64,000 nt of DNA from Candidatus Oleihabitans oleiphilus. GTDB lineage: Bacteria > Atribacterota > Phoenicimicrobiia > Phoenicimicrobiales > Stramentimicrobiaceae. Positions 11,731-35,950 of the stretch are shown one piece after another. The translations under genes and the position numbers were made by a program. How positions within the stretch are numbered: the first letter of the stretch is position 1; each line of letters begins with the position of its first letter. The notes under the pieces were generated by a model, which saw only the letters and a program-made list of their open reading frames with translations, did no database searches and had not been told where the DNA came from. The stretch spans positions 27,147 through 91,146 of the forward strand of contig JAGPKD010000001.1 of assembly GCA_018054125.1 (NCBI GenBank). The letters are read 5' to 3'.

Positions 11731-11904
11731 GTATATCGTATTACGTATAACGTATACCGTTAAAATTAGTCGTTGGTCGTTAGTATCTGGTATTTAGTTT
11801 ACCTATTACTTATTACCGGTTACTTATTACTGAATTGGCTCCTCGCAATGACAAAAATCGTATACCGTTAAAATACAGTCGCTAGTCGGAAGTTATTTCA
11901 GGGA
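11731..11904 (+). repeat. family A composite element, copy A1 (lacks left arm), upstream of the MarR gene
   Basis: Carries cgtattacgtataacgtataccgttaaaattagtcgttggtcgttagtatctggtatttagtt...ctcctcgcaatgacaaaa...agtcggaagttatttcaggg, which is shared with A2-A5. Confidence 0.8.
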
Positions 11905-11915
11905 TTCTCAAAAAG

Positions 11916-12398
11916 ATGAGTAAAAAAAGTAAGCAATCAAATGAAATTGCCTCTGAAATAGATAAGTTTTTTCTTCAGGCAACTGAAATGCTATGGCAAC
12001 ATGTTACCCAATGTTATGGAAGCACTAAAGGTAATGAGAAAAAATCTTTAACTATTACGGAGCATTTTATTATTGAATTTTTAGGGGAAGAATCTTTTGC
12101 TTCTATGAGCAGGCTTTCTCAAGTAATTCATGTTGCCCCTACTACCATGACCAGTATTGTAGACCGTTTGATAAAGCGTGGTCTTTTAGAAAGACATCGT
12201 GCCAAGCAGGATCGCAGAAAGGTTTTGGTCAGTCTATCAGAAAAAGGCAAACAACTCTATGAGATTCATTACCAGGAATCACTCAAACTCTATTCCTATT
12301 ATTTAAATAAATTCCCGGATAAAGGAAAGCAGTTTCGTCAAAATATCAATGAGCTTAGAAAAAATATTGATTATCTCAAGGGGAAGGATTCCCCTTGA
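11916..12398 (+). CDS. MarR-family transcriptional regulator. The C-terminal codons and stop are encoded by a family B hairpin repeat.
   Basis: Winged-HTH MarR core (SMSRLSQVIHVAPTTMTSIVDRLIKRGLLERHRAKQDRRKVLVSLSEKG). Confidence 0.7.
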   Translation: MSKKSKQSNEIASEIDKFFLQATEMLWQHVTQCYGSTKGNEKKSLTITEHFIIEFLGEESFASMSRLSQVIHVAPTTMTSIVDRLIKRGLLERHRAKQDRRKVLVSLSEKGKQLYEIHYQESLKLYSYYLNKFPDKGKQFRQNINELRKNIDYLKGKDSP

Positions 12399-12404
12399 AT
12401 ATTG
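12376..12404 (+). repeat. family B hairpin (caaggggaaggattccccttg), forming the 3' end of the MarR ORF
   Basis: 9-bp perfect inverted repeat with a 3-4 nt loop. Confidence 0.8.
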
Positions 12405-12486
12405 GAATTGCCAAGCAATTTCGATATTCTTAAATATACTAAGATATGATATTATAGATAGCTATTAAATAGAACAATAGCTATTC

Positions 12487-12540
12487 TATCACCCTCACCC
12501 TCTCCCCTCAAGGGAGAGGAGAGAGGAGAGGGTGATAAAT
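12487..12540. repeat. family C long palindrome (tatcaccctc...cccctcaagggagagg...gagggtgata)
   Basis: A ~50-bp near-perfect palindrome. Confidence 0.8.
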
Positions 12541-12551
12541 ATAGTACCATA

Positions 12552-12605
12552 TTCCTCTCCCTTAGAAGGGAGAGGAAAGGTGAGGGTGATAAATATTACC
12601 TTAAG
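12552..12605. repeat. family C unit (cctctcccttagaagggagagg plus aaggtgagggtgataaatattaccttaag)
   Basis: Also found at 16147, 28949, 40873 and 44687. Confidence 0.8.
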
Positions 12606-12622
12606 CTTAATTCCAGGGGAAA

Positions 12623-12815
12623 CCTCCTGATGACAAAATTGTATATTGTATTACGTATAACGTATACCGTTAAAATTAGTTGTTGGTCGTTAGTATCTGG
12701 TATTTAGTTTGCCTATTACTTATTACCGGTTACTTATTACTGAATTGGCTCCTCGCAATGACAAAAATCGTATACCGTTAAAATACAGTCGTTAGTCGGA
12801 AGTTATTTCAGGGAG
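12623..12815 (+). repeat. family A element, copy A2, upstream of the P-type ATPase
   Basis: Over 90% identical to A1 across ~190 bp. Confidence 0.8.
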
Positions 12816-13017
12816 TTTCAGGAGAAACACCCTGTCCCTGCGGGACACCCCTCTAAAGAGAGGAAGGATTCTAAGATAAACAACTAAGGACAAAATGTCA
12901 TTACCAGTCCTACCCCCTAAACTAATGTTTAGAGGCAGGGCGTGGCATACCATTATTGCTCTTATCTTTGGTCTAAAAACTGAGAACTGATAACTGAAAA
13001 CCATCTTGATTTTAATT

Positions 13018-13063
13018 GAGGGGTTTCAGGGGATACTTCCCCTGAATTCCCCTGAATATCTTG
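13018..13063 (+). repeat. family B hairpin (ttcaggggatacttcccctgaa plus duplicated tail)
   Basis: Perfect 9-bp stem. The ATPase start lies 100 nt downstream. Confidence 0.8.
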
Positions 13064-13163
13064 TAGCTTAATAGCTAAATGATGGCACTGCTATTTATTT
13101 AGCCCAACCTACTATTATTATAAGTATAAGTATCTATTGGGCAGATTATTAAGGAGAAAAAAC

Positions 13164-15905
<2,742 letters not shown>

Positions 15906-15971
15906 TGTTGACTATTAAGAATTATTCCAGTGCTAATCATCTATTTATACCGGGAATATGATATACTAATA

Positions 15972-16001
15972 TTATCGGAATTGCTGTGAAATTCCGATAG
16001 T
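15972..16001. repeat. family D palindrome after the P-type ATPase gene
   Basis: ttatcggaattgctgtgaaattccgatag. Confidence 0.7.
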
Positions 16002-16042
16002 AGAACATAGATTTTTTAAAATGATTAACTAACAATACATTC

Positions 16043-16103
16043 TATCACCCTCACCCTCACCCTCTCCCCTCGAGGGAGAGGTGAGAAGAGAGGGTGATAA
16101 ATA
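16043..16103. repeat. family C long palindrome
   Basis: tatcaccctcaccctcaccctctcccctcgagggagaggtgagaagagagggtgata. Confidence 0.8.
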
Positions 16104-16146
16104 TTCTTTTAGAAAAGCCTTCCAGTAAGTGGGTAACATTCCCTCA

Positions 16147-16200
16147 TTCCTCTCCCTTAGAAGGGAGAGGAAAGGTGAGGGTGATAACTATTACCTTAAG
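16147..16200. repeat. family C unit
   Basis: cctctcccttagaagggagaggaaaggtgagggtgataactattaccttaag. Confidence 0.8.
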
Positions 16201-16206
16201 GTTATT

Positions 16207-16236
16207 TGAGGAGTTTCAGGGGATACCTCCCCTGAT
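16207..16236 (+). repeat. family B hairpin
   Basis: ttcaggggatacctcccctga. Confidence 0.8.
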
Positions 16237-16343
16237 TAAATTATGTAAATAATTTAATGAATTTCTGATTTATACAAACTAAGGTCTTTATTTTTTAATT
16301 AGAATTTACTATATACGTAATACATAATACGGTATACTAATTT

Positions 16344-16380
16344 GAGGGGTTTCAGGGGATACCTCCCCTGAATATCTTGC
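16344..16380 (+). repeat. family B hairpin with conserved gaggggttt lead and aatatcttg tail
   Basis: gaggggtttcaggggatacctcccctgaatatcttg. Confidence 0.8.
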
Positions 16381-16410
16381 AGTATCGGAATTTCAATAAT
16401 TTAGATACTG
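16381..16410. repeat. family D palindrome (right arm degenerate)
   Basis: agtatcggaatttcaataatttagatact. Confidence 0.6.
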
Positions 16411-16459
16411 CAAGATAATATTAAGTATTATTTTTTCAATAAGGAACAATATATTCTGA

Positions 16460-16509
16460 CCCCCTCACCCTAACCCTCTCCCTCGAGGCGAGAGGAGAAG
16501 AAGAGGAAG
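16460..16509. repeat. family C unit (degenerate)
   Basis: ccccctcaccctaaccctctccctcgaggcgagaggagaag. Confidence 0.6.
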
Positions 16510-16582
16510 TAAGATATTTTTTCTTTATTTCTTAACTGTATTTTACTATATACTCAATACTTTATACTCAATACTATTCTTT

Positions 16583-16622
16583 AAGGGGTTCTCAAGGGGA
16601 AGGATTCCCCTTGAATATCTTG
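16583..16622 (+). repeat. family B hairpin, 30 nt upstream of the helicase start codon
   Basis: aaggggttctcaaggggaaggattccccttgaatatcttg. Confidence 0.8.
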
Positions 16623-16651
16623 TTTTAATTTTATTTTAAGGGAGTGACAGC

Positions 16652-18940
16652 ATGGGTTGTGATGTTAAGGAAATTATTCAGGAATTAGAGAATGATTACA
16701 CCATTCGTCCTTATTTAACGGCATTAGAGCATCTACCAGCACAGGAAGCCCGTTTAGCTGATTTTCCTGATTGGTTGGATAAAGCATTGGTTAATCAATT
16801 AAAACAAGATGGTATTACCAGTCTCTATACTCATCAAGCCAGTGCCCTGAAGGCAGTTAATGATGGTCAGAACATAGTGGTAGTTACCCCTACTGCCTCG
16901 GGCAAAACTCTCTGTTACAATTTACCAGTTTTAGATAAAATTATGAAGGAGCCGGAAAGCCGAGCACTTTATCTTTTTCCCACCAAAGCCCTTTCTCAGG
17001 ATCAGTTAAGAGAACTTTACCGTCTGATAGAGGCATTAGATAAACCAATAAATACTTTCACTTATGATGGAGATACCCCGGTCTCAGCACGTTCTGCTAT
17101 CCGCAACCAGGGTCATATTATAGTTACCAATCCGGATATGTTACATACTGGAATATTGCCCCATCATACCAAGTGGTATAGATTATTTCAGAATTTAAAA
17201 TATGTGGTCATGGATGAAATTCATATTTATCGTGGTGTATTCGGAAGTCATATTGCTAATGTCCTACGCCGACTAAGGCGGATTTGTGAATTTTATGGGG
17301 CAAAACCGCAGTTTATCTGTTGTTCTGCTACTATTGCCAATCCTCTGGAATTGGCAGAAAAGATCACAGAGGAGAAATTCACCTTAATTAATAATAATGG
17401 TGCACCCAGCGGGGAGAAGTATTTTCTGTTCTACAATCCGCCGGTGGTAAACAGACCACTGGGTATTCGTAAAAGCCTGATTAAAGAGACCGCTCGGCTG
17501 GTGAGTAAATTTTTAAATCACGATATCCAAACCATTGTTTTTGCTCGCAGTCGCCTGACCACTGAACTATTAACCAGTTATCTCAAGGATTATTTAACCA
17601 AAATTGGGCAGGACCGGGATTTAGTTAGAGGGTATCGCGGAGGTTATCTACCCAATTTACGTCGAGAAATTGAAAAAGGACTCAAAGAAGGACTTATAAA
17701 AGGGGTAATCAGCACCAATGCCCTGGAATTAGGGGTGGATATCGGGCAGCTGGATGCCTGTTTTATTGCTGGTTATCCAGGCACCATTGCCAGTACCTGG
17801 CAACAGGCTGGTAGAGCTGGTAGACGTACTCATTCCTCAGTTGCTGTTCTGGTGGCTTCCAGTATTCCCCTGGATCAATACATTATCAATTCCCCTGATT
17901 ACTTTTTTAAAGAGACACCGGAGAACGCCGTAATTGATGCCAACAATTTAAGTATTTTAATCAGTCACATCAAATGCGCTGCTTTTGAACTTCCTTTTCG
18001 AGATGGCGAAAAATTTGGTTCAGAAGAGCTGGAAGAAATATTACAATTTCTGGAGGAAAAAGGTTTCATTCATTTCACCCAGCATAAATGGCACTGGATG
18101 AGTGAGGCTTATCCTGCTGATGAAATCAGTTTACGCAGTGCTTCTCCTGAAAATTTTGCTATTATTGATTTAGAAAAAGGTGAAAACAAGGTTATCGGAG
18201 AGATAGATCGGGAAAGTGCTCCCACTACCATCTACGAAGGTGCCATTTATATTCATGAAGGTGAACAATATACTATTACCAAACTGGATTATGATGATTA
18301 TAAGGCTTATGCCAAAAAGGTAGATGTTAACTATTACACTGATGCCCAGGTGGAAAGTCATATCAAGGTTCTGGATGTCTTTGAGGGAAAAGAGGAAGAA
18401 AATATTAAACACCAGTATGGGGAGATAGCTATTACTACTATCTCCACCAGGTATAAAAAGGTAAAATTCTATACCCATGAAAATCTGGGTTATGGGAAAA
18501 TTAATTTACCGGCCGAAGATATGCATACCACTGCTTACTGGCTGATTCTCTCAGAGGCATTTTCAAATCTGGCGGGAGGGAAGATGTCTTCTGGATTTAC
18601 CTTTGATTTAGGGGGAGGTTTATTAGCCCTCTCTAATATCATGGTTAATGTCACTCCCTTATTTATTATGTGTGACCCTAAAGATATCAGGGCGGTAGCT
18701 CAAGTCCGTTCTCCTTTTACTGATTTACCAACCCTTTTTATTTATGATAATTATCCCGGGGGAGTGGGTTTTAGTGAGAAAATTTTCGAGTTTCGGGATA
18801 AAATTTTGAGGGCTGCTCGAGATTTGATTGAAAATTGTGGTTGTGAGGAAGGTTGTCCCTCCTGTGTTGGCCCTATTAATCAGGTAGGAAATAACGGTAA
18901 ACAGAGTGCCCTTTTTATTCTGAAGGAGGCAATTCACTGA
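16652..18940 (+). CDS. DEXH-box helicase with a C-terminal DUF1998 four-Cys domain (MrfA/YprA-like)
   Basis: Walker A (TPTASGKT), DEIH box and helicase C motifs are present. The C-terminus carries ENCGCEEGCPSCVGP. Size and architecture match B. subtilis MrfA. Confidence 0.8.
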   Translation: MGCDVKEIIQELENDYTIRPYLTALEHLPAQEARLADFPDWLDKALVNQLKQDGITSLYTHQASALKAVNDGQNIVVVTPTASGKTLCYNLPVLDKIMKEPESRALYLFPTKALSQDQLRELYRLIEALDKPINTFTYDGDTPVSARSAIRNQGHIIVTNPDMLHTGILPHHTKWYRLFQNLKYVVMDEIHIYRGVFGSHIANVLRRLRRICEFYGAKPQFICCSATIANPLELAEKITEEKFTLINNNGAPSGEKYFLFYNPPVVNRPLGIRKSLIKETARLVSKFLNHDIQTIVFARSRLTTELLTSYLKDYLTKIGQDRDLVRGYRGGYLPNLRREIEKGLKEGLIKGVISTNALELGVDIGQLDACFIAGYPGTIASTWQQAGRAGRRTHSSVAVLVASSIPLDQYIINSPDYFFKETPENAVIDANNLSILISHIKCAAFELPFRDGEKFGSEELEEILQFLEEKGFIHFTQHKWHWMSEAYPADEISLRSASPENFAIIDLEKGENKVIGEIDRESAPTTIYEGAIYIHEGEQYTITKLDYDDYKAYAKKVDVNYYTDAQVESHIKVLDVFEGKEEENIKHQYGEIAITTISTRYKKVKFYTHENLGYGKINLPAEDMHTTAYWLILSEAFSNLAGGKMSSGFTFDLGGGLLALSNIMVNVTPLFIMCDPKDIRAVAQVRSPFTDLPTLFIYDNYPGGVGFSEKIFEFRDKILRAARDLIENCGCEEGCPSCVGPINQVGNNGKQSALFILKEAIH

Positions 18941-18942
18941 CT

Positions 18943-20238
18943 ATGGATTTAAAGGATCGGCTGGAGAAGATTGAGAGTTTAAAAAGAAAGGTTCAGCAAG
19001 TTAATAATAATCACCAAAAGAGCAGCTTTTCTTATTGGAAAGCCAGAACGCCTCTTTCCATTTCTGAGGTTATCACAGGGAATCTTATGGCTACCCCCTA
19101 TGGTTCCTGTTTTTTTACCGAAAAGTGTATTCCGTTAGATAGTTATTTTGGTGAACTTTCTCTCTTAGATATGGTGAATTATTTTCCTTCAGGATTGGAT
19201 TTATTGATACCAAAATTTAAAGGGGAAAATAGTAATATTCAATTAGAAGATCTACTATTTTTTGATACCGAGACTACTGGATTGGCAGGAGGTTCTGGAA
19301 CTTACATTTTTTTATTAGGGCTGGGTTATTTTAAGGGAGACTCCTTTTGGGTTAGACAATATTTTATGTCAGACTACCATGAAGAAGAGGCCTTATTATG
19401 GGCAGTAAACCAGTTTTTTGCTCAGGGTTTTAAATTACTGGTTTCTTATAATGGGAAAAGTTATGATTATCCCTTACTGGAGACCCGTTATATTATGATG
19501 CGTCTCCCTTTACAATTAAACACTACTTATCATCTTGATTTATTATTCCCCACCAGAAGATTATGGAAGAGAAGATTACAAGACTGTTCTTTACCTCATA
19601 TAGAAAAGAAGATACTCAATATTTTTAGAGAGGAAGACCTCCCGGGCTACCTTATTCCTCAGGTCTATTTCCGTTATCTACAGGATAAGGATGCTCGTCC
19701 TCTCAAAACAGTCTTTGCCCATAATTTACAGGATATTGTTTCTCTGGCTATTTTGACTGCCCGGATTGGACAGATTTTTCAGGACCAGGACCCATTACGC
19801 AGGGTAAGATCGGGGTTGGATCTCTTTAGTATGGGCAAGATTTATGAGGGAAACAAAGATTTTCAATATAGCAGTAGATGTTATGAAGAGGCTTTAAATG
19901 GTAACTTATCAGAGGAAGAATCACTGGAAGCATTAAAATTATGTTCCTTTGCCTATAAAAAACAGGGGGAATGGAAGAAGGCCGAGCAAGCCTGGTATGA
20001 CCTTATTTCCTTGAGCCGGGGGAATAGGGAATTTATTTTTTATCCCTATGAAGAATTAGCTAAATATTATGAGCATATCCTGAAAGACTATTGGCAGGCA
20101 GAGAGGATAGTAGAGGAGGCTCTGTCCAGATTGGAACAGGAAAGTAGGAAAGAGGAAAATATGAAACAATGGCAACAGGCTCTATATCACCGTCTGGAAA
20201 GAATAAAAAGAAAACAGAAAACAAGAAGGAGTATTTGA
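18943..20238 (+). CDS. DEDDh 3'-5' exonuclease with C-terminal TPR-like region (MrfB/YprB-like)
   Basis: Exo I motif (FFDTETTGL), Exo II-like (YNGKSYDYPLL) and H..D (AHNLQD) are present. It starts 3 bp after the helicase stop. Confidence 0.7.
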   Translation: MDLKDRLEKIESLKRKVQQVNNNHQKSSFSYWKARTPLSISEVITGNLMATPYGSCFFTEKCIPLDSYFGELSLLDMVNYFPSGLDLLIPKFKGENSNIQLEDLLFFDTETTGLAGGSGTYIFLLGLGYFKGDSFWVRQYFMSDYHEEEALLWAVNQFFAQGFKLLVSYNGKSYDYPLLETRYIMMRLPLQLNTTYHLDLLFPTRRLWKRRLQDCSLPHIEKKILNIFREEDLPGYLIPQVYFRYLQDKDARPLKTVFAHNLQDIVSLAILTARIGQIFQDQDPLRRVRSGLDLFSMGKIYEGNKDFQYSSRCYEEALNGNLSEEESLEALKLCSFAYKKQGEWKKAEQAWYDLISLSRGNREFIFYPYEELAKYYEHILKDYWQAERIVEEALSRLEQESRKEENMKQWQQALYHRLERIKRKQKTRRSI

Positions 20239-20774: not shown

Positions 20775-20817
20775 TAAATTCTGAATAAATAAGATATATG
20801 GAAAGAGGTAGAGAAAG

Positions 20818-21156: not shown

Positions 21157-21257
21157 GATATAAAGCTAAAAAAGGAATTTTGGTGATTGAGAAAGACGAT
21201 GAATTTTATCCCAAAATAAAAGAAATGGTGATTAAAAATCAATAGGAGGAACAGTCT

Positions 21258-21593: not shown

Positions 21594-21627
21594 ACACTAA
21601 CTAAAAATTGGAAAGTAGTAAGAATTT

Positions 21628-22461: not shown

Positions 22462-22515
22462 AAAATATTAAAATTAAGAAATATAAAAATAAAACTTCAG
22501 GAGGAGGAATATCAA

Positions 22516-23700: not shown

Positions 23701-23782
23701 CTATTTAGAATAGATATAGCTTTTCTATTTTTATCCTTAATTATCCTTGTTATTAAAAACAAAAGATTTTAAAGTAATCTAA

Positions 23783-25870: not shown

Positions 25871-25972
25871 TACTTCCCTTTCTATTTCCTATTTTATTGG
25901 TTATATTCATCTTTATCAAAAATTATATCACATTTCCATATTTTTTAACAAAATAGTTCTATTTCAAAATAT

Positions 25973-28018
25973 CTATAAAATGTAGCTAAAAGAGTCATTT
26001 CCTCTAAGCTTAAGCACTTTTTCCAGGTCTTTTTTTCCTATTACTCCCATTTCTAGTAATATTTGACCCAAAGGCTTAGGGTAAAACTTTTGAGCCCTTA
26101 AAGCCTCTATCAGCTGTTCCTCCTGGATTAAACCGAGACTTAAAAGTTTTTCTCCTAAGCGAGGGAGAGAAGAAACGTATTGTTCGTTAAAACGTTCCAG
26201 CGCTTCCTTAATAAGGGAAGGATTGGCTAAGACTGTCGATAATTCGTCCACTTGCAGCTCTTTTTTAATTTCTTCTCTAACTTCTGTAGAAAGAGGGGCT
26301 CCAACGGCTAAAATCACTAACTTTTCAGTTATAACTACCGGTACAGTGTGATATTTTTTAAAAATTTCGAGCATATTCGGGGTTATGTTTTCTATTCTAA
26401 CCAGGTAATCGTCTAACTCTATATGACCGATTTTTAAGGCTTCTCCTAAAACTTGAGTCAATTCTTCCTGGGAAATAATCCCCTCTTTAAGTAAAAACTC
26501 TCCTATTTTTTCTCCCCTTTCTTTTGCCTCTTTCAAGCTTTTAGCTAAAGTCTCTGGCTCTATAATTTGTTTTTCTAACATCAAATCACCTAACTTTCGT
26601 TGATAACGAAACAATACTTCCGGCGGAAGATAGGTGTGTTTAGTTTTCTGCCAACGAGGACGAGTTTGGGGAAAACCAAAAAGGGCTATTCTCCAGGCGC
26701 TAAGAGTAGCTAAAAAATTTATTACATTTCCCCAGATAGTGCGTAAGGGTAAAAGAGGAGGAACAAGACAACCAGCTACCGCTGACCGCCATCCATAAAC
26801 TTTTTTTAGAGCAATACCCCGCATAATTTGGCGTTCCAGCATGAAAAAAGTTAACCCTACACTTACTCCCCAAGAAAGCGACCCTTTAGGATAAACAGGA
26901 GGAACATCATAGAGTAAAGAAAGAATAAAATAGGCGAAAATTACATATCCGGGAACGGTAAGAAGATTACCATATTTGGCTTTCCAATCACGGAAAAGCC
27001 CATATTTGGCCATAAAACTAAAATTTTTACTTTTAATAACTTTCCAGAAAGAAAAGCTCTGGAAAGAAATACCATAGATCCAGCGCGATTTCTGTTTGAC
27101 TGCCTCGTGTAGAGTGTTGGGGAAAATCTCTCTGGTAGCTATGTATTCGGTAATTATTCTACCATCATCCAGTATCCTCTGGACACCTTCTAGAAAAAAG
27201 TGGGTAAAAATCCCCAATTCAGCAAGATGGTAGGATAATTTATAATCCTCAGTTATACTGCCTTCTTCGAAGAGCTCATATTTTCCTAATTTATCCAAAA
27301 CGGAATGGGAGAAAACAAAACCAGTCCCAGCAGAGGGAACCATAGCGCCACTTGCCTCTCGGGCTAAGAGACCTCGATAATGGTTCTCCGCAAATTCGTC
27401 AGCATAAGTAGAAGAAGTAATAAACTTAAAGAAAGTACGCCAGGTAGGATAGGGTTGAAGAGGAAAGACTGGTAGCTGTACCACTTCATATTGAAAGCTC
27501 AGGTAATTGGCTAACTTAAAAGAGGTAGGATGGATCACATCTTCGGCATCGTGCACGATAAAAGAAGCAAAACGAAGGTGTTTTTCTTTTTCCAAATTTA
27601 GAATAGAACTGAGCAGTTGATTAAGATTCTGACCTTTACTGGTTGGTCCCGGTTTAGAATTGACTACCGCATGCACATTGGGGTATTTTTTTGCTAAGAT
27701 TTGCACTTCTTCGCAGGTAGATGGGTCATTAGGATAAACCCCGATAAAAACATGGAAAAGGGAGAGAGGGTAATTCACCGAGTGAATTAAGTTATCAATC
27801 ATCGGGCCAATTACTTCTGCCTCATTCCAGGCGGGAATTAAAATCGCCAGCAGGCGTCGGGGGACACTATCTAAGTCTTTCATCTGGAGGCGATTTTTAA
27901 CTTTTTTCCGCCCACCACCATAGTAATAGATGTCCCAGAAGAGGTCGTCCAGGCTAAAGACAATAAAGAGAAAAGCAATAATAAACCCCAGGTAGTAGAG
28001 ACATTCTTCTATAAACAT
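25973..28018 (-). CDS. NfrB-like family 2 glycosyltransferase with TM region and two tandem C-terminal MshEN (GspE-N-like, c-di-GMP-binding) domains
   Basis: GT2 catalytic core (ILIPAWNEAEVIG; HDAED) and several TM segments. The C-terminal 24-residue MshEN motifs include RLGEKLLSLGLIQEEQLIEALRAQ and KIGEFLLKEGIISQEELTQVLGEAL. Confidence 0.7.
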   Translation of the reverse strand: MFIEECLYYLGFIIAFLFIVFSLDDLFWDIYYYGGGRKKVKNRLQMKDLDSVPRRLLAILIPAWNEAEVIGPMIDNLIHSVNYPLSLFHVFIGVYPNDPSTCEEVQILAKKYPNVHAVVNSKPGPTSKGQNLNQLLSSILNLEKEKHLRFASFIVHDAEDVIHPTSFKLANYLSFQYEVVQLPVFPLQPYPTWRTFFKFITSSTYADEFAENHYRGLLAREASGAMVPSAGTGFVFSHSVLDKLGKYELFEEGSITEDYKLSYHLAELGIFTHFFLEGVQRILDDGRIITEYIATREIFPNTLHEAVKQKSRWIYGISFQSFSFWKVIKSKNFSFMAKYGLFRDWKAKYGNLLTVPGYVIFAYFILSLLYDVPPVYPKGSLSWGVSVGLTFFMLERQIMRGIALKKVYGWRSAVAGCLVPPLLPLRTIWGNVINFLATLSAWRIALFGFPQTRPRWQKTKHTYLPPEVLFRYQRKLGDLMLEKQIIEPETLAKSLKEAKERGEKIGEFLLKEGIISQEELTQVLGEALKIGHIELDDYLVRIENITPNMLEIFKKYHTVPVVITEKLVILAVGAPLSTEVREEIKKELQVDELSTVLANPSLIKEALERFNEQYVSSLPRLGEKLLSLGLIQEEQLIEALRAQKFYPKPLGQILLEMGVIGKKDLEKVLKLRGNDSFSYIL

Positions 28019-28462
28019 AGCTAGATTAGTTTTTTACTCCGTTTCTGTTTTCAGTTTAGAAAATATTATTCAGCTTGTGCTAAAGGCTTAAACGATTATC
28101 TCTTTTACACCTTTGTTATAACTTATTTTTACAAGCTTGGATATATTATCAATTTTTTTAAAAAAAAGCAAATTATTGAGTTAATTAAATTTTAAACTAA
28201 CAGTTAACTAGACCTTATAAACAGACCAGACTATCGATTTTGGTAAATTTTTCCAATATGCGCATCTAAAGAGAAGAATTGTTTATGACTTAAATAGCTC
28301 CTTCCTAGCATTTTTGTTAAAAAATGTTTTACCAGAAAGAGGAAACAAGATATAATTATAAAATATATTTTATAATAATTTTATAATACTGGGATTTTAA
28401 AAAAATCCTGTATTCTTATTTCATATAAACAAGATAGCATTTTCTTGAATTGTATTTTCTTT

Positions 28463-28497
28463 GAGGGGCTTCAGAGGATACCTCCCCTGAATATACT
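28463..28497 (+). repeat. family B hairpin (variant)
   Basis: gaggggcttcagaggatacctcccctgaatatac. Confidence 0.7.
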
Positions 28498-28666
28498 AAT
28501 TGTCTAGCAATTTCGATACTATATAAGATAAACTACCAGAGTAAAAGGTCATTGCGAGGGAAGCACTCAACATTATTTGAGTGCTTCCCGTGGCAATCTC
28601 ATACTATTATACCGGTATCTTTGGTCTTATAACTGAGAATCAATAACTGACTACTTTCCATTAATA

Positions 28667-28895
28667 CTGCGGGCGTAAGTGAATGAGATTGCTTCGTCGC
28701 TATGCTCCTCGCAATGACAAAATAGTATATCGTATTACGTATAACGTATATCGTTAAAATTAGTCGCTGGTCATTAATAGCTGGCATTTAGTTTCCTATT
28801 GCTCATTACTTATTACTAGTTACTTATTACTGATTAGTCTCCTTGCAATGGCTAAAAGATTATATCGTATTACGTATATAAGATATATCGAATTT
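28667..28895 (+). repeat. family A element, copy A3 (diverged), upstream of the HAD/radical SAM operon
   Basis: Shares gtgaatgagattgcttcgtcgct.tgctcctcgcaatgacaaaa and the tacgtata/ttagtcg/ttacttattac blocks. Confidence 0.7.
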
Positions 28896-28948
28896 TATGT
28901 TATGTCTTTTATCTAATGAAACCGAATACAGTTATGCTCACCATCATA

Positions 28949-29003
28949 ATCCTCTCCCTTAGAAGGGAGAGGTAAGGTGAGGGGGATAAATTATTACCTT
29001 ATT
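28949..29003. repeat. family C unit abutting the HAD gene start
   Basis: cctctcccttagaagggagaggtaaggtgagggggataaattattacctt. Confidence 0.8.
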
Positions 29004-29008
29004 ACTTT

Positions 29009-29707
29009 ATGGGGAGGAATAATGCCATTCGTACCATTATCTTTGACCTTGATGATACCTTAATACAAACCTCTAAAATTTACCATCAAGCCCGGGATGA
29101 ATTTGCCCGGATTATGTCTAGCCTGGGATTTCCCAGGGAGGAAGTTCTGGAAAAGCTTGATGAAATTGATATCAAGCATATCCAGGAACAGGGTTTTGCC
29201 AAAGAAAGGTATCCTTTAAGCCTGATTAAGACCTATCATTATTACTGTGAGTGTTCTGGTGAGAAAATTGACCTTCAAACAGAAAAGGAAATTGCTGCCA
29301 TAGGCTGGAAAGTTTTTCAGCAAATTCCAGAGCAGGTAGAGGGGGCTGATTTAGTATTAAATAATCTAAAAGGACGTTATCTCTTAATACTGGCAACTCT
29401 GGGAGATCCGGAAATACAACACCAGAAGATAAGGTATTCTGGATTACAGTCTTATTTTTCGGCTATCTATGTCTTAAATTATAAAACTGCTGAGGAATAT
29501 CTCCAAATTATTAAACAACATAATCTCAAGAAAGAAAAAACCTGGATTATTGGTAATAGTATTCGCTCTGATTTAAATCCTGGATTAGAACTGGGATTAA
29601 ATTGTATTTTAATACCTGCTCCTACCTGGAAATTTGAGGAAGAAAAACCAATTTCCAATCATTATTTACAATTAAAGTCTCTGGTAGAAGTATTGAATTA
29701 TCTATGA
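29009..29707 (+). CDS. HAD-superfamily hydrolase
   Basis: Motif I IIFDLDDTL and motif IV IIGNSIRSD. Confidence 0.6.
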   Translation: MGRNNAIRTIIFDLDDTLIQTSKIYHQARDEFARIMSSLGFPREEVLEKLDEIDIKHIQEQGFAKERYPLSLIKTYHYYCECSGEKIDLQTEKEIAAIGWKVFQQIPEQVEGADLVLNNLKGRYLLILATLGDPEIQHQKIRYSGLQSYFSAIYVLNYKTAEEYLQIIKQHNLKKEKTWIIGNSIRSDLNPGLELGLNCILIPAPTWKFEEEKPISNHYLQLKSLVEVLNYL

Positions 29708-30621
29708 AAAAATATCCTTCTTATCTCAATCTAAGCAAAGTTCAATTTCAAAGACGGATTAGAGAAGCCTATCATGGTCTTCAGTCCTGCTGTCTCTGTC
29801 CTCATCATTGTGGGGTAAATCGCATTGCCGGTCAAAAAGGCCTATGTCGCTCTACTGCTCAACTCACAGTAGCCAGCTACAATGCCCATTTTGGTGAGGA
29901 ACCCCCTATTTCGGGTAGCCGTGGTTCAGGGACCATCTTTTTTAGCAATTGTACTTTACATTGTCTATTTTGCCAGAATTATCCTATCAGCCAGCTGGGG
30001 CATGGTAATCCCGTTTCCATTTCAGAATTATCCAAAATGATGCTTGATTTACAAAAACAGGGGTGTCATAATATTAATCTGGTAACACCAACTCATTTTG
30101 TAGCCCAAATTATAGCGGCAATAGGAGAGGCCAAATCGAAGGGACTTTCTATACCCATCGTGTATAATACCAGTGGATATGAATCCTTGACTACCTTAAA
30201 GTTATTAGAGGGAATTATCGATATTTATCTTCCTGATGCCAAGTATGCTGATAACCTTATTGCTAAAAAGTATTCTCAGGCAGAGAATTATTTTTCGGTC
30301 ATGAAAGAAGCACTGCGCGAGATGTATCGCCAGGTAGGTGATTTAAAAGTAGATCAGAATGGTATTGCCATTTCCGGCTTGATTATACGCCATTTAGTGT
30401 TACCAAATAATCTATCAGGTAGTGATAAGATATTACCGTGGATTGCTCAGAATATATCTCCAGAAACTTATCTTAGTTTGATGTCTCAATATTTTCCTGC
30501 CTTTCAGGCGGATAAATATCCCGAACTTTCTCGCCGCATTACTCGTGCCGAATATAGTAAGGCTAAGCTGGCCTTTGAGCAATGTGGATTAAAAAACGGT
30601 TGGTTGCAACAAAATGAATAG
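29704..30621 (+). CDS. radical SAM protein, PflX / pyruvate formate-lyase activase-related family with an extra N-terminal Cys cluster
   Basis: CLCPHHCGVN...GLC cluster followed by radical SAM CTLHCLFCQNY. It overlaps the HAD gene by 4 bp. Confidence 0.65.
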   Translation: MKKYPSYLNLSKVQFQRRIREAYHGLQSCCLCPHHCGVNRIAGQKGLCRSTAQLTVASYNAHFGEEPPISGSRGSGTIFFSNCTLHCLFCQNYPISQLGHGNPVSISELSKMMLDLQKQGCHNINLVTPTHFVAQIIAAIGEAKSKGLSIPIVYNTSGYESLTTLKLLEGIIDIYLPDAKYADNLIAKKYSQAENYFSVMKEALREMYRQVGDLKVDQNGIAISGLIIRHLVLPNNLSGSDKILPWIAQNISPETYLSLMSQYFPAFQADKYPELSRRITRAEYSKAKLAFEQCGLKNGWLQQNE

Positions 30622-31501
30622 CATTAGTGATATGAATAGAAAAAAATCCAGTCTTAAAGCAGAAATAATCCTGTTAGGGGTAGTGGTGATCTGGGGTTAT
30701 ACCTTCCCGGTAATCAAAAAGGTACTGCTGGAGATTCCCCCTTTTACTTTTCTAAGCTACCGTTTTTTACTGGCTTTTGCGGTCATTTATTTAATCTTTT
30801 CCAAGCAGCTAAGAAGAATTGAATTAAAGACTATTAAGGATGGATTTCTGGTCGGATTATTTCTTTTTATTGGTTATTTTGGACAGACTGTAGGGACCCA
30901 ATTTACCACCGCTACCAAAACTGCTTTTATTACTGGCACCTCGGTAGTTCTGGTTCCTATTTTTTACTTTTGCTGGCTCAAAGAGAAAATTAAGCTTAAT
31001 TCAGTTATGGGGGTATTTCTGGCTATGATTGGTCTGTGGCTTATGAATTCTAACGGCACCCTGTATCACATCAATTTAGGTGATTCTCTGGTTTTCCTGG
31101 GGGCGGTTGGTTTTGCCTTCTATATTATTGCTGTTCATATTTATACCCAAAAACATGATTATGTCCAGCTGGTCTTTATCCAGTTAGTTACCGTTGCTCT
31201 TCTCTCTTTTTTGATGGCTATCATAACGGAAAGGGAGGCCTTACATTTTTCCTATGGTTTTTCGGTATACTGGGCAATTGTGGTTACTGGAATATTTGCT
31301 ACCGCTCTTGCCTTTTATCTCCAAAATCGTTATCAACGTTATTCCAGCCCTACTAAGATTGCCCTTATTTTTGCAGCCGAGCCAGTCTTCGGTGCTCTTT
31401 TTTCTTACCTAATTTTAGGGGAAACTATTGGTGTTTTCGGTATTATCGGTGGGTTGGCGATTTTTGCTGGCATGTTTATTGCTCAGGTGGAAAAGACTTA
31501 A
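30614..31501 (+). CDS. EamA/DMT-family transporter
   Basis: 10-TM protein with duplicated EamA-like halves. Confidence 0.65.
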   Translation: MNSISDMNRKKSSLKAEIILLGVVVIWGYTFPVIKKVLLEIPPFTFLSYRFLLAFAVIYLIFSKQLRRIELKTIKDGFLVGLFLFIGYFGQTVGTQFTTATKTAFITGTSVVLVPIFYFCWLKEKIKLNSVMGVFLAMIGLWLMNSNGTLYHINLGDSLVFLGAVGFAFYIIAVHIYTQKHDYVQLVFIQLVTVALLSFLMAIITEREALHFSYGFSVYWAIVVTGIFATALAFYLQNRYQRYSSPTKIALIFAAEPVFGALFSYLILGETIGVFGIIGGLAIFAGMFIAQVEKT

Positions 31502-31514
31502 AAAGAGTATTTAA

Positions 31515-31547
31515 TAGTATCAGAATTTTTTTGAAATTCCGATACTA
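31515..31547. repeat. family D palindrome just after the EamA gene stop
   Basis: tagtatcagaatttttttgaaattccgatacta. Confidence 0.8.
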
Positions 31548-31573
31548 TAAAATAAGGATAAATATTATTAACT

Positions 31574-32386
31574 ATGTTAAATATATTAAGCACTCTTCAC
31601 CCGCTAATACAGGCTTTAATGGCCGGGATTTTCACCTGGGGCATGACTGCCTTAGGTGCAAGTATGGTCTTTTTAACCAGGGAAGTGAATCGTAAGTTAC
31701 TCGATACTATGTTAGGATTTGCAGCCGGTGTTATGATAGCGGCCAGTTACTGGTCACTTTTGGCACCAGCCATCGCTATGGCGGAAGAAGGGCCACTGCC
31801 AGCCTGGGTTCCGGCAGCTGTTGGTTTTTTGCTGGGAGGGATTTTCTTAAGAGGAATTGATGCCGTATTACCTCACCTCCATGTTGGTTTACCTACCAGA
31901 GAAGTAGAAGGAGTTCCTACTAGCTGGCAGAGAAGCACGCTGCTTATCCTGGCAGTCACTTTACACAATATTCCAGAAGGTCTGGCAGTGGGGGTAGCTT
32001 TCGGCGCAGTAGCTGCCGATTTACCCACTTCCTCTCTTTCTGCAGCCATGGCCTTAGCCATCGGTATTGGCCTACAAAATTTTCCAGAAGGGACGGCTAT
32101 CTCTATGCCCTTAAGAGGAGAGGGTATGTCTGCTAAGAAAAGTTTCTACTATGGACAACTTTCAGGGATTGTAGAACCTATCTTCTGTATGATTGGTGTT
32201 TCAGCCGTTTTAATTGCCCGCTCTATTCTGCCCTATGCCCTGGCTTTTGCCGCCGGTGCTATGATATTTGTGGTGGTAGAAGAATTAATACCTGAATCAC
32301 AGCAGAGAGGTCATTCCGACCTGGCTACTATGGGGGTAATGGTTGGCTTTACCATCATGATGATTCTGGATGTATCCTTAGGCTAA
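31574..32386 (+). CDS. ZIP-family metal (zinc) transporter, ZupT-like
   Basis: [10 protein letters not shown] and NFPEGTA signature motifs, 8 TM segments. Confidence 0.75.
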
Positions 32387-32620
32387 AATTATTTATTACT
32401 CCCTATAAGCAGCATTTTGCCCTTAACATTAATTTATTTTTCTTTTTCCCACCTATGACGCATAAAGCACCTTTAAGATTTGATTTTCAATATTTAGTGT
32501 GCTAAAATTATGCACTACAGCAAAAATATATAAAATAGTGCTTTTAAAAATAGAACATAATTTTTTAAATAAGGAATAATATAGTTATCAGTTTGCAGTT
32601 AACTGTTTTCAGATAAAAGA

Positions 32621-32878
32621 TGCCGGTATAAGTGAATGAGATTGCTTCGTCGCTTTGCTCCTCGCAATGACAAAAAGAATATATCGTTTAACGTATAAGG
32701 TATATCGTTAAAATTAGTCGCTGGTTGTTAGTCGTTAGTATCTGGCATTTAGTTTGCCTATTACTTATTACTGGTTACTTATTACTGGATTGGCTCTTCG
32801 CAATGACAAAATGGTATACCGTATAACGTATAACGTATATCGTTTAAATTCAGTTGCTAGTCAGAAGTTATTTCAGGG
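32621..32878 (+). repeat. family A element, copy A4 (full length), upstream of the GGDEF gene
   Basis: Near-identical to A5, starting tgccggtataagtgaatgagattgcttcgtcgctttgctcctcgcaatgacaaaa. Confidence 0.85.
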
Positions 32879-32913
32879 GTTATCAAGGGGAAGGATTCCC
32901 CTTGAACATCTTG
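32872..32913 (+). repeat. family B hairpin fused to the 3' end of A4
   Basis: ttcaggggttatcaaggggaaggattccccttgaacatcttg. Confidence 0.8.
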
Positions 32914-32946
32914 TAGTATAGGAATTTCAAAAAATTTCGATACTGC
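32914..32946. repeat. family D palindrome
   Basis: tagtataggaatttcaaaaaatttcgatactg. Confidence 0.8.
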
Positions 32947-32998
32947 AAGATAATATAAATATTATCTACTAAATAAGTAACAATATATTTTGTTTTTA

Positions 32999-33043
32999 AT
33001 TCAGGGGATTTCAAGGGGAAGGATTCCCCTTGAACATCTTGTA
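32999..33043 (+). repeat. family B hairpin, 27 nt upstream of the GGDEF gene start
   Basis: ttcaggggatttcaaggggaaggattccccttgaacatcttg. Confidence 0.8.
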
Positions 33044-33073
33044 GTATCTTGTTGTATTTTGGAGGGCTAAATT

Positions 33074-35650
33074 ATGAATATTTGGCATTTACTCCCTTTT
33101 TTGCACTTTAATGACCCTATAGAAGAAGTAGAAATTAAGAAGAAAGAAGAACTCTTTCCAAAGACTCAGGAAGAAGCTACCAATTTATTTCAAAACAGCC
33201 CCCTGGCCGGAATATATCATGATGAAAAGGGAATTATTCTGAATATAAATAAAAAGTTCACTGAATTATTTGGTTACACTTTGGATGAGCTTAAAGGAAA
33301 AAATATCAATGAAGGAATGATTTTTCCTGAAAAAGAAACGGTTAGGGAAAGTAAACAGCTGACTAAAATGGCTCTTGCTGGAGAAGAAATTAAATATAAA
33401 ACCATTCGCAAAAAGAAAGATGGAACACTCCTACCCGTTATTATTACCGTTGCTGCAGTTATTAAAGAAGGTGAAAATAAAACCATTGTAGCCTTTTACC
33501 AGGATATTAGCCAAGAGCAAGCAATGTTAGAAAGATTAGCGGAAAGTGAAAGAAAATACCACAGGCTTTTTAATGATATGCCCGCCACTTATTATCAAGC
33601 AGATAGGGATGGAAATATTATAGCAATGAATCCCTACGGGGTTAAACTATTAGAATACCAATCGGAAGAAGAGATTATCGGAAAAAACATTGCTCGAGAT
33701 CTCTACTATAAACCTGAGGATAGAACAAAGTTTTTAGCAGCCTTAAAAAATAAGGGAGGGATAATCAAAGATTATGAGGTTATTTTAAAAAATAAAGAGG
33801 GAGTTCCTATCATTGTTTCCACTAATAGCCAATATTATTACCATGAATCTGGAGAATTGTTAGGGGTAGAAGGTATTTTTGTAGATATAACAGAACGGAA
33901 AAAACAAGAAGAGACTTTACGTAAGAGTCAGCAAGAATTTAGGAGTCTATTTAAAAGTAGTTCGGAGGCTTTAGATTATCTGGACAGAAATGGCAAGATT
34001 ATAGATATAAATCCTCGTTTTAGCGAGCTTTTTGGTTATACTTTAGAAGAAATTAAAGGAAGATATATTGATGACGGGATGATTCATCCACCTGATAAAA
34101 TAGAAGAAGGGAGAAAATTAGTAAGCAAGGCCTTATCCAGTGGTTATCGAAATTATGAGACCATAAGGAAGAAAAAAGATGGAACTTTATTTCCAGTTTC
34201 TATTTCCGGCTCCCCGGTTATTGTTAATGGAGAAGTAATAGGTACCTTGGGAAATTATATAGACATTTCGGAACGTAAGCGTAATGAATTAATACAACAA
34301 GTTTTGTATAATATTTCTAAAGCTACCAATTCTACAATTTCCCTGAACTCTCTTTACCGTATTATTCACCAAGAGTTAAGTAAACTAATTGATACCACTA
34401 ATTTTTATATAGCCCTATTAGATAAGGAGAAAGGGGGAATTTATTTTCCATACAATGTGGATGAATTCCAGCGAATTCATCATTCCCGACCACTTGACCA
34501 CCATTCTCTCATAGCCTATCTATTTAAAACTGGGAAACCTATTCTTGTTAATCAGAAAATTATCCACAAGAACCCTGTATTTAAAAAATATGAGGAATGG
34601 TTTGGTAGCCAGCGCCAGTCCTGGCTTGGTGTTCCTCTTAAAATTGAAGGAGAAACCATAGGGGCTCTGGTGGTTCAAAGTTATAAAAAGTCTGCCCAAT
34701 ATAATGAGGAAGATATTAAGATAATGGAGATAGTTTCCTCCCAGGTTTCCATCGCTATTAAGCGAAAACAGGATGAAGAAGCCTTACAAAAAAGCCAGCA
34801 GGAATTTGCCAGTCTCTTCCAGAGCCATTCTGAAGCCTTGCTTTATGTTGATGAGAAAGGGACCATTTTAGATATCAACAAACGTTTTAGCGAGCTTTTT
34901 GGCTATAACTTAGAAGAGATCAAAGGGAAAAATATTAATTGTGGAATTATCCATCCCCCTGAGAAAATAGAGGAAGGAAAAGAGATTGACCAAAAAGCAC
35001 TTTCTTCAGGTTATGTGCAATTGGAGACCATCCGAAAAAAGAAAGATGGTACCATATTTCCAGTCTTGATATCGGGTTCCACGGTCTTTATTGATGGAAA
35101 AGCCTGTGGAATTATTTGTACTTATATAGATATTAGCGAAAGAAAAAAATTTGAAGAACAATTAGAGAAATTATCACGCGTCGATAGTTTGACCGGCTGT
35201 TACAATCGTAGATATGGTTTGGAATTGCTAGAACAGCAAATAAAATTAGCCCAGCGTCTTAAGTCACCCCTATTAATAGCTTTTTTAGATATCGATAACT
35301 TTAAAGCAATTAATGATAATTTTGGACATCAGGAGGGAGACAAAATCTTAATAGAAGTCGGCAATCTATTAAAATCCACCTTAAGGGAGGTTGATGTCAT
35401 CTGCCGTATAGGAGGAGATGAGTTCCTGCTTGCCTTCCCGGATACCTCTATCCAGGAGGCTCCCCTGATCAGAAGTAGACTGGAGGAAAAATTAGTTCCC
35501 TTAAACCGTAAAATAAGCAAAGGCTATCAAATTCAATTCAGCATGGGCTTTGTGGAACATTTACCAGGAGCAGCAAAGCCTCTGGATAAACTGATAACTA
35601 TAGCTGACCAGAGGATGTATGAGGATAAGAAGAAAAAGAAAAAACTATGA
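33074..35650 (+). CDS. diguanylate cyclase with three PAS domains, a GAF domain and a C-terminal GGDEF domain
   Basis: GGDEF active site RIGGDEFLLAF with an upstream I-site RxxD. Three paralogous PAS modules each carry FSELFGY.LEEIKG. A GAF domain lies between them and the GGDEF domain. Confidence 0.85.
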   Translation: MNIWHLLPFLHFNDPIEEVEIKKKEELFPKTQEEATNLFQNSPLAGIYHDEKGIILNINKKFTELFGYTLDELKGKNINEGMIFPEKETVRESKQLTKMALAGEEIKYKTIRKKKDGTLLPVIITVAAVIKEGENKTIVAFYQDISQEQAMLERLAESERKYHRLFNDMPATYYQADRDGNIIAMNPYGVKLLEYQSEEEIIGKNIARDLYYKPEDRTKFLAALKNKGGIIKDYEVILKNKEGVPIIVSTNSQYYYHESGELLGVEGIFVDITERKKQEETLRKSQQEFRSLFKSSSEALDYLDRNGKIIDINPRFSELFGYTLEEIKGRYIDDGMIHPPDKIEEGRKLVSKALSSGYRNYETIRKKKDGTLFPVSISGSPVIVNGEVIGTLGNYIDISERKRNELIQQVLYNISKATNSTISLNSLYRIIHQELSKLIDTTNFYIALLDKEKGGIYFPYNVDEFQRIHHSRPLDHHSLIAYLFKTGKPILVNQKIIHKNPVFKKYEEWFGSQRQSWLGVPLKIEGETIGALVVQSYKKSAQYNEEDIKIMEIVSSQVSIAIKRKQDEEALQKSQQEFASLFQSHSEALLYVDEKGTILDINKRFSELFGYNLEEIKGKNINCGIIHPPEKIEEGKEIDQKALSSGYVQLETIRKKKDGTIFPVLISGSTVFIDGKACGIICTYIDISERKKFEEQLEKLSRVDSLTGCYNRRYGLELLEQQIKLAQRLKSPLLIAFLDIDNFKAINDNFGHQEGDKILIEVGNLLKSTLREVDVICRIGGDEFLLAFPDTSIQEAPLIRSRLEEKLVPLNRKISKGYQIQFSMGFVEHLPGAAKPLDKLITIADQRMYEDKKKKKKL

Positions 35651-35677
35651 ACCAATAACTTAAAACTTTTTATAATA

Positions 35678-35920
35678 CTGCCGGTATAAGTGAATGAGAT
35701 TGCTTCGTCGCTTTGCTCCTCGCAATGACAAAAAGAATATATCGTTTAACGTATAAGGTATCTCGTTAAAATTAGTCGTTGGTCGTTAGTATCTGGCATT
35801 TAGTTTGCTTATTACTGGTTACTTATTACTGAATTGGCTCCTCGCAATGACAAAATGGTATATCGTATTACGTATAACGTATATCGTTTAAATACAGTTG
35901 CTAGCCGGAAGTTATTTCAG
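35678..35920 (+). repeat. family A element, copy A5 (full length), upstream of the HD-GYP gene
   Basis: Near-identical to A4. Confidence 0.85.
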
Positions 35921-35950
35921 GGGTTTCAGGGGAATCTTCCCCTGAATATT
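35916..35950 (+). repeat. family B hairpin, 30 nt upstream of the HD-GYP gene start
   Basis: ttcaggggtttcaggggaatcttcccctgaatattc. Confidence 0.8.

Follow-up and report, generated by a model that had tools for sequence, protein, structure and literature searches.

Family A, a probable modular interspersed repeat with a 7-nucleotide register in a lineage of uncultured Atribacteria

The 64,000-nucleotide stretch of Candidatus Oleihabitans oleiphilus analysed here (contig JAGPKD010000001.1, positions 27,147 to 91,146, hereafter the window) contains five copies of a non-coding sequence, family A, each lying upstream of a different gene. We consider, with a probability of roughly three in four, that family A is a modular interspersed repeat, present in many copies and specific to a lineage of uncultured Atribacteria (the metagenome-assembled genome, or MAG, 'Candidatus Atribacteria bacterium UBA6794' and its relatives) and not a dedicated regulatory element. 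Its copies come and go between strains that are 92–98% identical, long and short forms interchange at individual sites, and whole 7-nt units are gained and lost. A first-pass annotation of the same DNA had seen in these copies either a promoter-carrying miniature inverted-repeat transposable element (MITE) that had been co-opted or a shared cis-regulatory leader linking c-di-GMP turnover, Ca2+ export and a MarR regulator, and it had overlooked the main regularity of family A, which is a periodicity of 7 nt.

An nhmmer profile built from the five window copies was searched against the window and ~200 kb of fetched loci (numbered with the prefix L). The five copies (A1 to A5, Table 1), all on the + strand, were recovered at the places where they had first been noticed, with E values from 3.9e-58 to 2.4e-80, a direct-repeat search and an alignment agreeing with the profile, and the downstream genes proved by Pfam to be those already named. 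The near-identity of A4 and A5 was also borne out (97% over 112 nt, with a common unique signature in the left part, CGTTTAACGTATAAGGTAT). Other parts of the original description have to be modified. The length, given as a uniform ~250 bp, ranges from 174 to 259 nt. The architecture thought to be common to all copies is complete in A4 and A5, while A1 has no left arm, A2 keeps just its final ~15 nt, and A3 ends in the alternative right end R2; similarly, the right end runs into a family B-type hairpin in A4 (B2) and A5 (B), but A3 has no family-B hairpin.

The anatomy was established from an alignment of 37 copies with their flanks and a module census by blastn-short. At its left end a copy has the left arm or a C hairpin, followed by a CGTATNA block (H1), a middle module M (TTAAAATTAGTCG...TTACTTATTAC twice...GGCTCCTCGCAATGACAAAA), a second CGTATNA block (H2) and a right end that is either R1 (AAATACAGTTGCTAGTCGGAAGTTATTTCAGGGG) adjoining a B or B2 hairpin (CAGGGG or CAAGGGG) or R2 leading into a C (GGGAGAGG) hairpin. 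The short form consists of left arm, H and R1. The long form consists of two halves that are homologous as a direct repeat; it is in effect a diverged tandem duplication of a short unit, and recombination between the halves would give the short form. The core of ~200 nt consists throughout of degenerate 7-nt units in a single register that begins with the first CGTATA block. It passes through CGTATNA, TTRGTNN, NNNTTAC, half of the left-arm motif and the second CGTATNA, and reaches to the right end, which is homologous to the first half. Autocorrelation in all five copies gave z values of 5.0–6.9 at lag 7, 4.4–5.3 at lag 14 and 1.8–3.4 at lag 21, and a single heptad register suffices to write out A4 from 32675 to 32879. 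Pairwise comparison of 20 copies showed that 71% of the indels of at least 5 nt are multiples of 7.

An exact scan for an invariant 24-mer (CTTATTACYRGTTACTTATTACTG) among 185,579 species representatives (one genome per species) returned 26 stretches, 24 of them in UBA6794 and one in a second Atribacteria MAG; a Patescibacteria match (L007) had no nhmmer profile match and was treated as chance. UBA6794, to which the window is closely related (L006 and L015 align at 91.7–98.1%), carries at least 25 further copies, and the nhmmer search found 61 family A segments overall. The HD-GYP protein of the window is also 100% identical to one encoded on a 112-kb contig of an NCBI 'Candidatus Atribacteria' MAG. 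A metagenome scan with the 24-nt pattern added 22 stretches, and many of these contigs terminate within the element, as expected of a repeat that breaks assemblies. The products of genes downstream of the UBA6794 copies include an NFACT/ThiI-like protein, DUF2148, two PfkB kinases, Ile/Val-type and alanyl-tRNA synthetases, an ABC ATPase, TetR, a homocysteine-synthesis enzyme (HcyBio), a solute-binding protein, a BadF/BcrA ATPase, RpoN, PPDK, CobA and HSP20, and no functional theme was found among the genes downstream of copies. About 21 of 29 copies in this MAG (~72%) are sense to the neighbouring genes, and the other eight (~28%) lie either antisense between co-directional genes (prepilin peptidase, RecX, SLH protein, DUF6982) or where convergent genes meet. 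The constant orientation and the position 5' of genes pointed out earlier are a property of the window, with antisense copies and copies at 3' gene ends elsewhere. Nor is there a fixed distance to the start codon, as would be looked for in a regulatory element, the next one being 12 to ~550 nt away. GC skew, taken as an indicator of insertion oriented by replication, was discarded, as it merely mirrors the gene strand (21:8) and leaves replication and transcription bias inseparable.

Evidence for a repeat in turnover comes from orthologous sites. The marR locus was compared with six other assemblies, and A1 is kept at its site in L006, L027–29, L031 and L037 with indels of 7, 14 or 21 nt; these include UBA6794 and two strains whose MarR is 98% and 82% identical, respectively. 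Three CGTATAA units precede marR in the window versus five in the 98% strain, and the second block at this site has one versus four units between strains. One 94% strain (L030) has a different gene upstream and short forms only. L006, L027, L030 and L031 have no A2 in the orthologous spacer, and this copy was found in the window strain only; A5 is absent from the 171-bp GGDEF-to-HD-GYP spacer in four assemblies (L032–35) of a 94%-identity relative. The A4 site carries in L015 and L032–35 a short form (left arm, one H block and R1) with ~130 nt less, the A3 orthologue in L015 has no left arm and begins at the GGGAGAGG (C) hairpin, and the R2 right end of A3 is common to L011, L014, L020, L024 and L025.

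The history of the A1 site can be followed further back. Distant Atribacteria with 60% MarR identity (L079/L080) keep the synteny ASS-ASL-marR-ATPase, and their ASL-marR spacer of 58 bp contains the same promoter and palindrome (ATTGCGATATTCGTAAT) and no family A, with the start codon ~17 nt further on. The promoter is conserved there as TTGACT-17-TAATAT and the palindrome as ATTGCGA-TAT-TCGTAAT, in the same place. This palindrome is likely to be the MarR operator, ancestral and independent of the element. A1 stands between the ancestral promoter with its putative operator and the marR start, and is therefore a lineage-specific insertion in the marR 5' untranslated region (UTR). The marR leader has grown from ~25 nt to ~200 nt, and to >600 nt in one strain. 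The gap from marR to the P-type ATPase gene is also short in distant Atribacteria, 22 bp (L077 1989–2011), next to the 58 bp between ASL and marR (L079 1442–1501); MarR and the cation ATPase therefore form an ancestral unit, probably autoregulated, which in this lineage has been stretched by the insertion of repeats. The marR stop codon itself lies within a B2 hairpin (window 12373–12402, …CAAGGGGAAGGATTCCCCTTGA), so that the last residues of MarR are repeat-encoded, and in L027, at 98% identity, the spacer is ~480 bp shorter, joined at the 10-bp GGAAGGATTC, and the MarR protein has 163 aa and a different C-terminus, three residues longer.

Two of the window copies, A2 and A5, are specific to this strain, and their junctions can be inspected. 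A2 is 97% identical to A1, which lies 910 nt upstream in the same orientation, and its nearest relatives among 49 copies are A1 and the A1 orthologues (97.6–98.4%). A5 is separated from A4 by 3058 nt. The left junction of A2 is a half B hairpin fused to a CTCC...GATGACAAAA motif; the strains lacking A5 already have at that site the AACTGAN heptad module that usually precedes the left arm, together with a B hairpin whose 5' extension (GAGGGGTT) matches the R1 end. These junctions look like homology- or microhomology-assisted copying between mosaic clusters, and not like cut-and-paste transposition. New copies would be made by duplicative copying that depends on homology (gene conversion or template switching), into intergenic clusters where the flanking modules are already in place, and the donor would often be a neighbour (A1 for A2, 910 nt away; A4 for A5, 3058 nt away). 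Recombination between the two internal direct repeats, together with replication slippage, would then produce the short forms and the unit-number variants. Sense copies would be co-transcribed as unstructured AT-rich 5' UTR or intercistronic RNA, and would affect expression, if at all, only incidentally, by way of leader length, spacing or the hairpins attached to them.

The element had been described as structured, a view that the folding tests contradict. Neither Rfam over the whole window at the gathering threshold nor Rfam at E<=10 on 32400–36000 gave anything relevant to the element. The RNAalifold consensus of 20 copies (-2.9 kcal/mol, covariation term +0.38, 1/14 compensatory pairs) revealed no conserved structure and no covariation support. 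A4 folds with z values of -2.6 and -2.7 on the two strands only through its appended B2 hairpin, and once the B hairpin is left out no RNA fold exceeds that of shuffled sequence (A1 z +1.05, A5 z -0.04); the DNA fold is equally ordinary (core z -0.17, canonical left arm z -0.1). Promoter scans found no + strand sigma-70-like site inside any of the five copies. No terminal inverted repeats are common to the copies, A3, A4 and A5 with their flanks giving differing weak pairs, and the alternative left and right ends leave no fixed ends with a target-site duplication of fixed length. The sole flanking direct repeat, the 10-bp GGAAGGATTC, brackets a ~480-bp multi-family composite that includes A2 (as compared with L027) and is part of the B2 hairpin. 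No transposase was found by Pfam among the 30 window open reading frames (ORFs), and the Pfam-scanned ORFs contain no Y1_Tnp domain, although no search was aimed at RAYT genes. The MITE reading comes close only loosely, as one of a repeat that is dispersed and unstable: it keeps the multiple copies and the presence or absence that differs between strains, but loses the inverted repeats, the duplications and the internal promoter.

The strict 7-nt register, extending over ~200 nt in every copy, would also fit a reading in which the phased CGTATNA, TTRGTNN and NNNTTAC units are a cooperative platform, carried by the repeat, for an oligomerising DNA- or RNA-binding protein, with unit gain and loss tuning the neighbouring genes in the manner of a simple sequence repeat (SSR) rheostat. 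Such a logic is known from omega/RHH repressors, which act on 7-bp heptads, from HutP, which acts on UAG-N4 repeats, and from the IHF sites of BIME-1. The three versus five units before marR, the excess of indels in multiples of 7, UAG/UGG recurring at 7-nt spacing in the TTRGTNN block and the sense-orientation bias all suit such an array, and heptanucleotide SSRs in a 5' UTR do control hmw expression in Haemophilus influenzae (PMC12721329, PMC8262952). Against it, no candidate binding protein was identified, blocks of one to five imperfect units are short for high-rate slippage, and the copies occur in both orientations beside all gene classes and are dispensable at orthologous sites. The H block (TACGT-ATA-ACGTA) does resemble the ancestral marR palindrome (TACGA-CAT-TCGTA), but a 10/14 likeness is near-automatic for a repeating unit containing ACGT. 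We regard a heptad array of this kind as improbable, and it is just as much of a long shot that family A is a mobile binding platform read by an oligomerising Atribacteria protein, whose copying and heptad changes rewire or tune many unrelated genes; within that reading, the 34-nt left arm shared across phyla could recruit the copying machinery. Binding of MarR itself to the CGTATA blocks was set aside and remains a low-probability lead, the marR palindrome being ancestral and independent of the element and the resemblance 10/14.

A classical non-autonomous transposon, MITE- or REPIN-like and mobilised in trans by a transposase that acts on the flanking hairpins, such as one of the Y1/RAYT or IS200/IS605 type, would explain why the copies are multiple, intergenic and variably present between strains. 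Hairpin modules (B, B2, C and left-arm variants) flank most copies, and Y1 transposases recognise hairpins (PMC3116915). The ends, however, are not fixed and share no terminal inverted repeats, none of the 30 window ORFs scanned by Pfam is a transposase, and new copies appear inside pre-existing homologous modules. Even the GGAAGGATTC repeat around the ~480-bp segment that contains A2 and is missing from L027 encloses a composite of several families and not A2, and, lying within the B2 hairpin, looks like a recombination point. We hold this kind of transposon to be very improbable. Least credible of all is the shared leader, whether a structured 5' UTR RNA or an operator array, that would define a regulon of c-di-GMP turnover, cation export and MarR. 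All five window copies are sense and upstream of genes, A1 is certainly in the marR 5' UTR and is retained with few substitutions in the 82%-identity orthologue, and A4 lies downstream of a promoter-like site. Yet A2 and A5 are absent from close relatives that have the same genes, and A4 is shortened there; elsewhere the genes are unrelated housekeeping genes, with 28% of the copies antisense or at 3' ends, and the variable spacing to start codons (12–550 nt) and the lack of conserved structure, covariation, above-chance folding or an Rfam match complete a picture in which the regulon, or structured-leader, reading is largely refuted.

Several observations weigh against the interspersed-repeat explanation that we prefer. 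In its 3' part, A1 shows 96.6% identity between the window and L031, against 82% at the third codon positions of marR, a conservation that suits selection as well as homogenisation among copies; the contrast is weak, since the neighbouring ATPase gene is 94% identical. The sense bias, incomplete but significant (21/29, two-sided binomial ~0.02 by our own arithmetic, on copies that are not independent), could stem from a function of the transcript as well as from selection against harmful orientations. The copying mechanism is read from the junction anatomy of just two new copies, no transposase or recombinase could be tied to the element, and co-transcription is likewise deduced from the sequence. 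Finally, the lineage is known as fragmented MAGs only, which makes the copy number and orientation statistics incomplete.

Family A has much in common with known bacterial repeats, and we place it as a new, lineage-specific member of the class of mosaic interspersed repeats, with an unusual heptad register throughout the element. Bacterial interspersed mosaic elements (BIMEs) of Escherichia coli and other enterobacteria are extragenic, multi-copy patchworks of motifs, often co-transcribed and arranged differently between strains. Family A is also an extragenic mosaic of few motifs in alternative combinations, including long and short forms, that differ between strains; but BIMEs are built on palindromic REP (repetitive extragenic palindromic) units, whereas the core of family A is non-palindromic and shows no excess folding, its 7-nt phasing has no BIME counterpart, and its host phylum is Atribacteria. 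The BOX elements of Streptococcus pneumoniae (boxA-boxB(n)-boxC) have end modules and variable internal units, occur in dozens to hundreds of copies, encode no protein and show orientation effects relative to genes. Family A resembles them in being modular and intergenic with variable internal units. BOX, however, folds into a stable RNA, has no sequence similarity to family A, and varies by a ~45-nt boxB as opposed to a 7-nt unit plus a ~130-nt half-element. The unit TTGGTCA of the short tandemly repeated repetitive (STRR) sequences comes near the TTGGTCG and TTAGTCG units of family A, which has the tandem 7-nt periodicity of such repeats. STRR sequences are intergenic arrays of 7-bp repeats in heterocystous cyanobacteria, sometimes in promoters or leaders, with function unknown (PMC2670836). 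They are arrays of a single unit, in contrast with the fixed ~200-nt series of several heptad blocks in Atribacteria that is copied as a whole. With MITEs (Correia/NEMIS, Nezha) and with REPINs (for REP and REPIN context, including the inverted REP doublet, see PMC3116915), family A shares a small size, lack of coding capacity, multiple intergenic copies and insertion polymorphism, but it has no terminal inverted repeats, fixed ends, target-site duplication or inverted doublet of palindromic REPs (only the adjoining B, B2 and C modules are hairpins), and no cognate transposase was found among the window ORFs scanned. Unit number varies between strains in family A as in the 7-nt SSRs of the H. 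influenzae hmw1A and hmw2A 5' UTRs (PMC8262952, PMC12721329), although the hmw tracts are long and perfect and confined to one or two contingency loci, whereas those of family A have one to five imperfect units at dozens of loci.

Table 1. Positions of the family A copies, their downstream genes and associated features in the window
Feature	Position	Strand	Remarks
A1	11731..11904	+	nhmmer E 3.9e-58, profile positions 58-245; order H1 (3 CGTATNA heptads), M, partial left arm, one-unit H2, R1; left end without left arm; marR ATG 12 nt past its end
A2	12623..12814	+	nhmmer E 1.8e-62; in the marR/P-type ATPase spacer; same sub-type as A1
A3	28668..28894	+	nhmmer E 4.3e-67; upstream of HAD / radical SAM operon; order left arm, H1, M, H2, alternative right end R2 into GGGAGAGG-type (C) hairpin
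A4	32621..32879	+	nhmmer E 2.4e-80; long form; upstream of GGDEF gene
A4, approximate parts	left arm ~32632-32675; H1 ~32677-32707; M ~32708-32812; H2 ~32813-32843; R1 ~32844-32879		
A5	35679..35923	+	nhmmer E 2.1e-79; long form; starts 29 nt past GGDEF stop, ends 57 nt before HD-GYP ATG
MarR gene	11916-12398		downstream of A1; Pfam
P-type cation ATPase gene	13137-15905		downstream of A2; Pfam
HAD / radical SAM / EamA / ZIP operon	29009-32386		downstream of A3; Pfam
PAS-GAF-GGDEF gene	33074-35650		downstream of A4; Pfam
PAS-GAF-HD-GYP (HD_5) gene	35980-37470		downstream of A5; Pfam
Sigma-70-like promoter TTGACT-17-TATTAT	11670..11698	+	upstream of A1, outside the element; 10/12 consensus matches
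Palindrome ATTACGA-CAT-TCGTAAT	11703..11719	.	outside the element; read from the sequence
Promoter-like TTGATT-17-TAAAAT, TG-extended	32480..32508	+	upstream of A4; identical in L032-35
Family B2 hairpin TCAAGGGGAAGGATTCCCCTTGA	32883..32905	+	adjoins A4 right end; separate repeat family
Family B hairpin	35925..35946	+	adjoins A5 right end
Left-arm 34-mer GAGATTGCTTCGTCGCTT(T/C)GCTCCTCGCAATGAC	28686-28719, 32639-32672, 35697-35730		within A3, A4, A5
Left-arm variants	28548-28602(-), 45133-45190, 45200-45240(-), 48512-48566(-)		
Inverted left-arm-type module	28548..28602	-	GTCATTGCGAG-(hairpin)-CGTGGCAATCTC, 13-bp perfect apical hairpin

The left arm has a distribution of its own. Its 34-mer is found exactly in 18 IMG/VR viral contigs (L059–L076) of 36% to 65% GC with unrelated flanks, often beside its own inverted copy or tandem CTCGCAATGAC units, and a 32-nt exact match lies on a Methylosinus trichosporium plasmid. 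A related form (GTCATTGCGAGCGAAGCGAAGCAATC) is repeated at 40 or more places along a Novosphingobium resinovorum megaplasmid. Plasmids of Methylobacterium and Nostocales have it too, and in no case is it annotated. The general form is GTCATTGCGAG-(variable hairpin)-CG(T/A)(G/A)GCAATCTC, and in the window it also occurs inverted with variable apical hairpins (28548–28602 and 45133–45240), the first of these modules lying 76 nt upstream of the A3 left arm with a DNA fold of -17.4 kcal/mol (z -7.8). Given these matches, the left arm is an independent cross-phylum micro-repeat that has merely been captured at one end of family A, and the 34-mer may be a horizontally spreading micro-element. We found no description of it in the searchable literature; looking there for the sequence itself or for the peptide translation of the left arm brought up unrelated primers only, and no paper dealing with intergenic repeats of Atribacteria came to light.

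Most of the intergenic spacers are filled by other repeats, of at least four families, namely B (TTTCAGGGGATACCTCCCCTGAATATCTTG), B2 (TCAAGGGGAAGGATTCCCCTTGAATATCTTG), C (CCTCTCCCTTAGAAGGGAGAGG..GGTGAGGGTGAT) and a GGAATTTC..GAAATTCC hairpin, with 35–37 matches each in the window and the fetched loci. Window places are 12376–16620, 28436–28990, 32880–33040, 40857–40965, 44670–44765 and 56957–58460, and all 16 window copies of B, B2 and C are on the + strand, even beside - strand genes at 40.9 and 44.7 kb. Beside left-arm modules there is regularly, in both orientations, a further heptad array, (AACTGAN)n or its complement (CAGTTNN)n (window 28615–28660, 12965–13000 and 32585–32616; L032 4330–4380), and the 7-nt phasing therefore reaches beyond family A. 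About 2.8 kb of the window (25955–28725) is replaced by ~240 bp in UBA6794 (L015); this window-only segment holds, besides repeat modules, a gene for a 681-aa family-2 glycosyltransferase with a MshEN domain (25973–28018, -). A toxin-antitoxin and defence island (45440–50666) comprises a HEPN/nucleotidyltransferase pair (45440–46427, -), an abiF RNA (47137–47173, Rfam 50.4 bits) directly upstream of an Abi_2 protein (47200–48078), DUF2283 with a PBECR2-like nuclease (48714–49240, -) and HigB/HTH (50051–50666, -), interleaved with 300-nt direct repeats 2931 nt apart and 97% identical (46636–46935 and 49567–49866).

These results remove the inference of a c-di-GMP, Ca2+ and MarR regulon defined by a shared leader, and replace it with a previously undescribed repeat in the Atribacteria, a phylum with almost no genetics. 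Most intergenic spacers of this lineage are put together from a few repeat modules, whose turnover can be seen between strains 92–98% identical. There are practical consequences as well, as such repeats break MAG assemblies, lengthen 5' UTRs and can pass for regulatory motifs. The cross-phylum left arm is a more curious lead than family A itself, and the heptad register of the whole element, in parallel with that of the STRR sequences, hints at a general and as yet unexplained origin of 7-nt-phased bacterial DNA.

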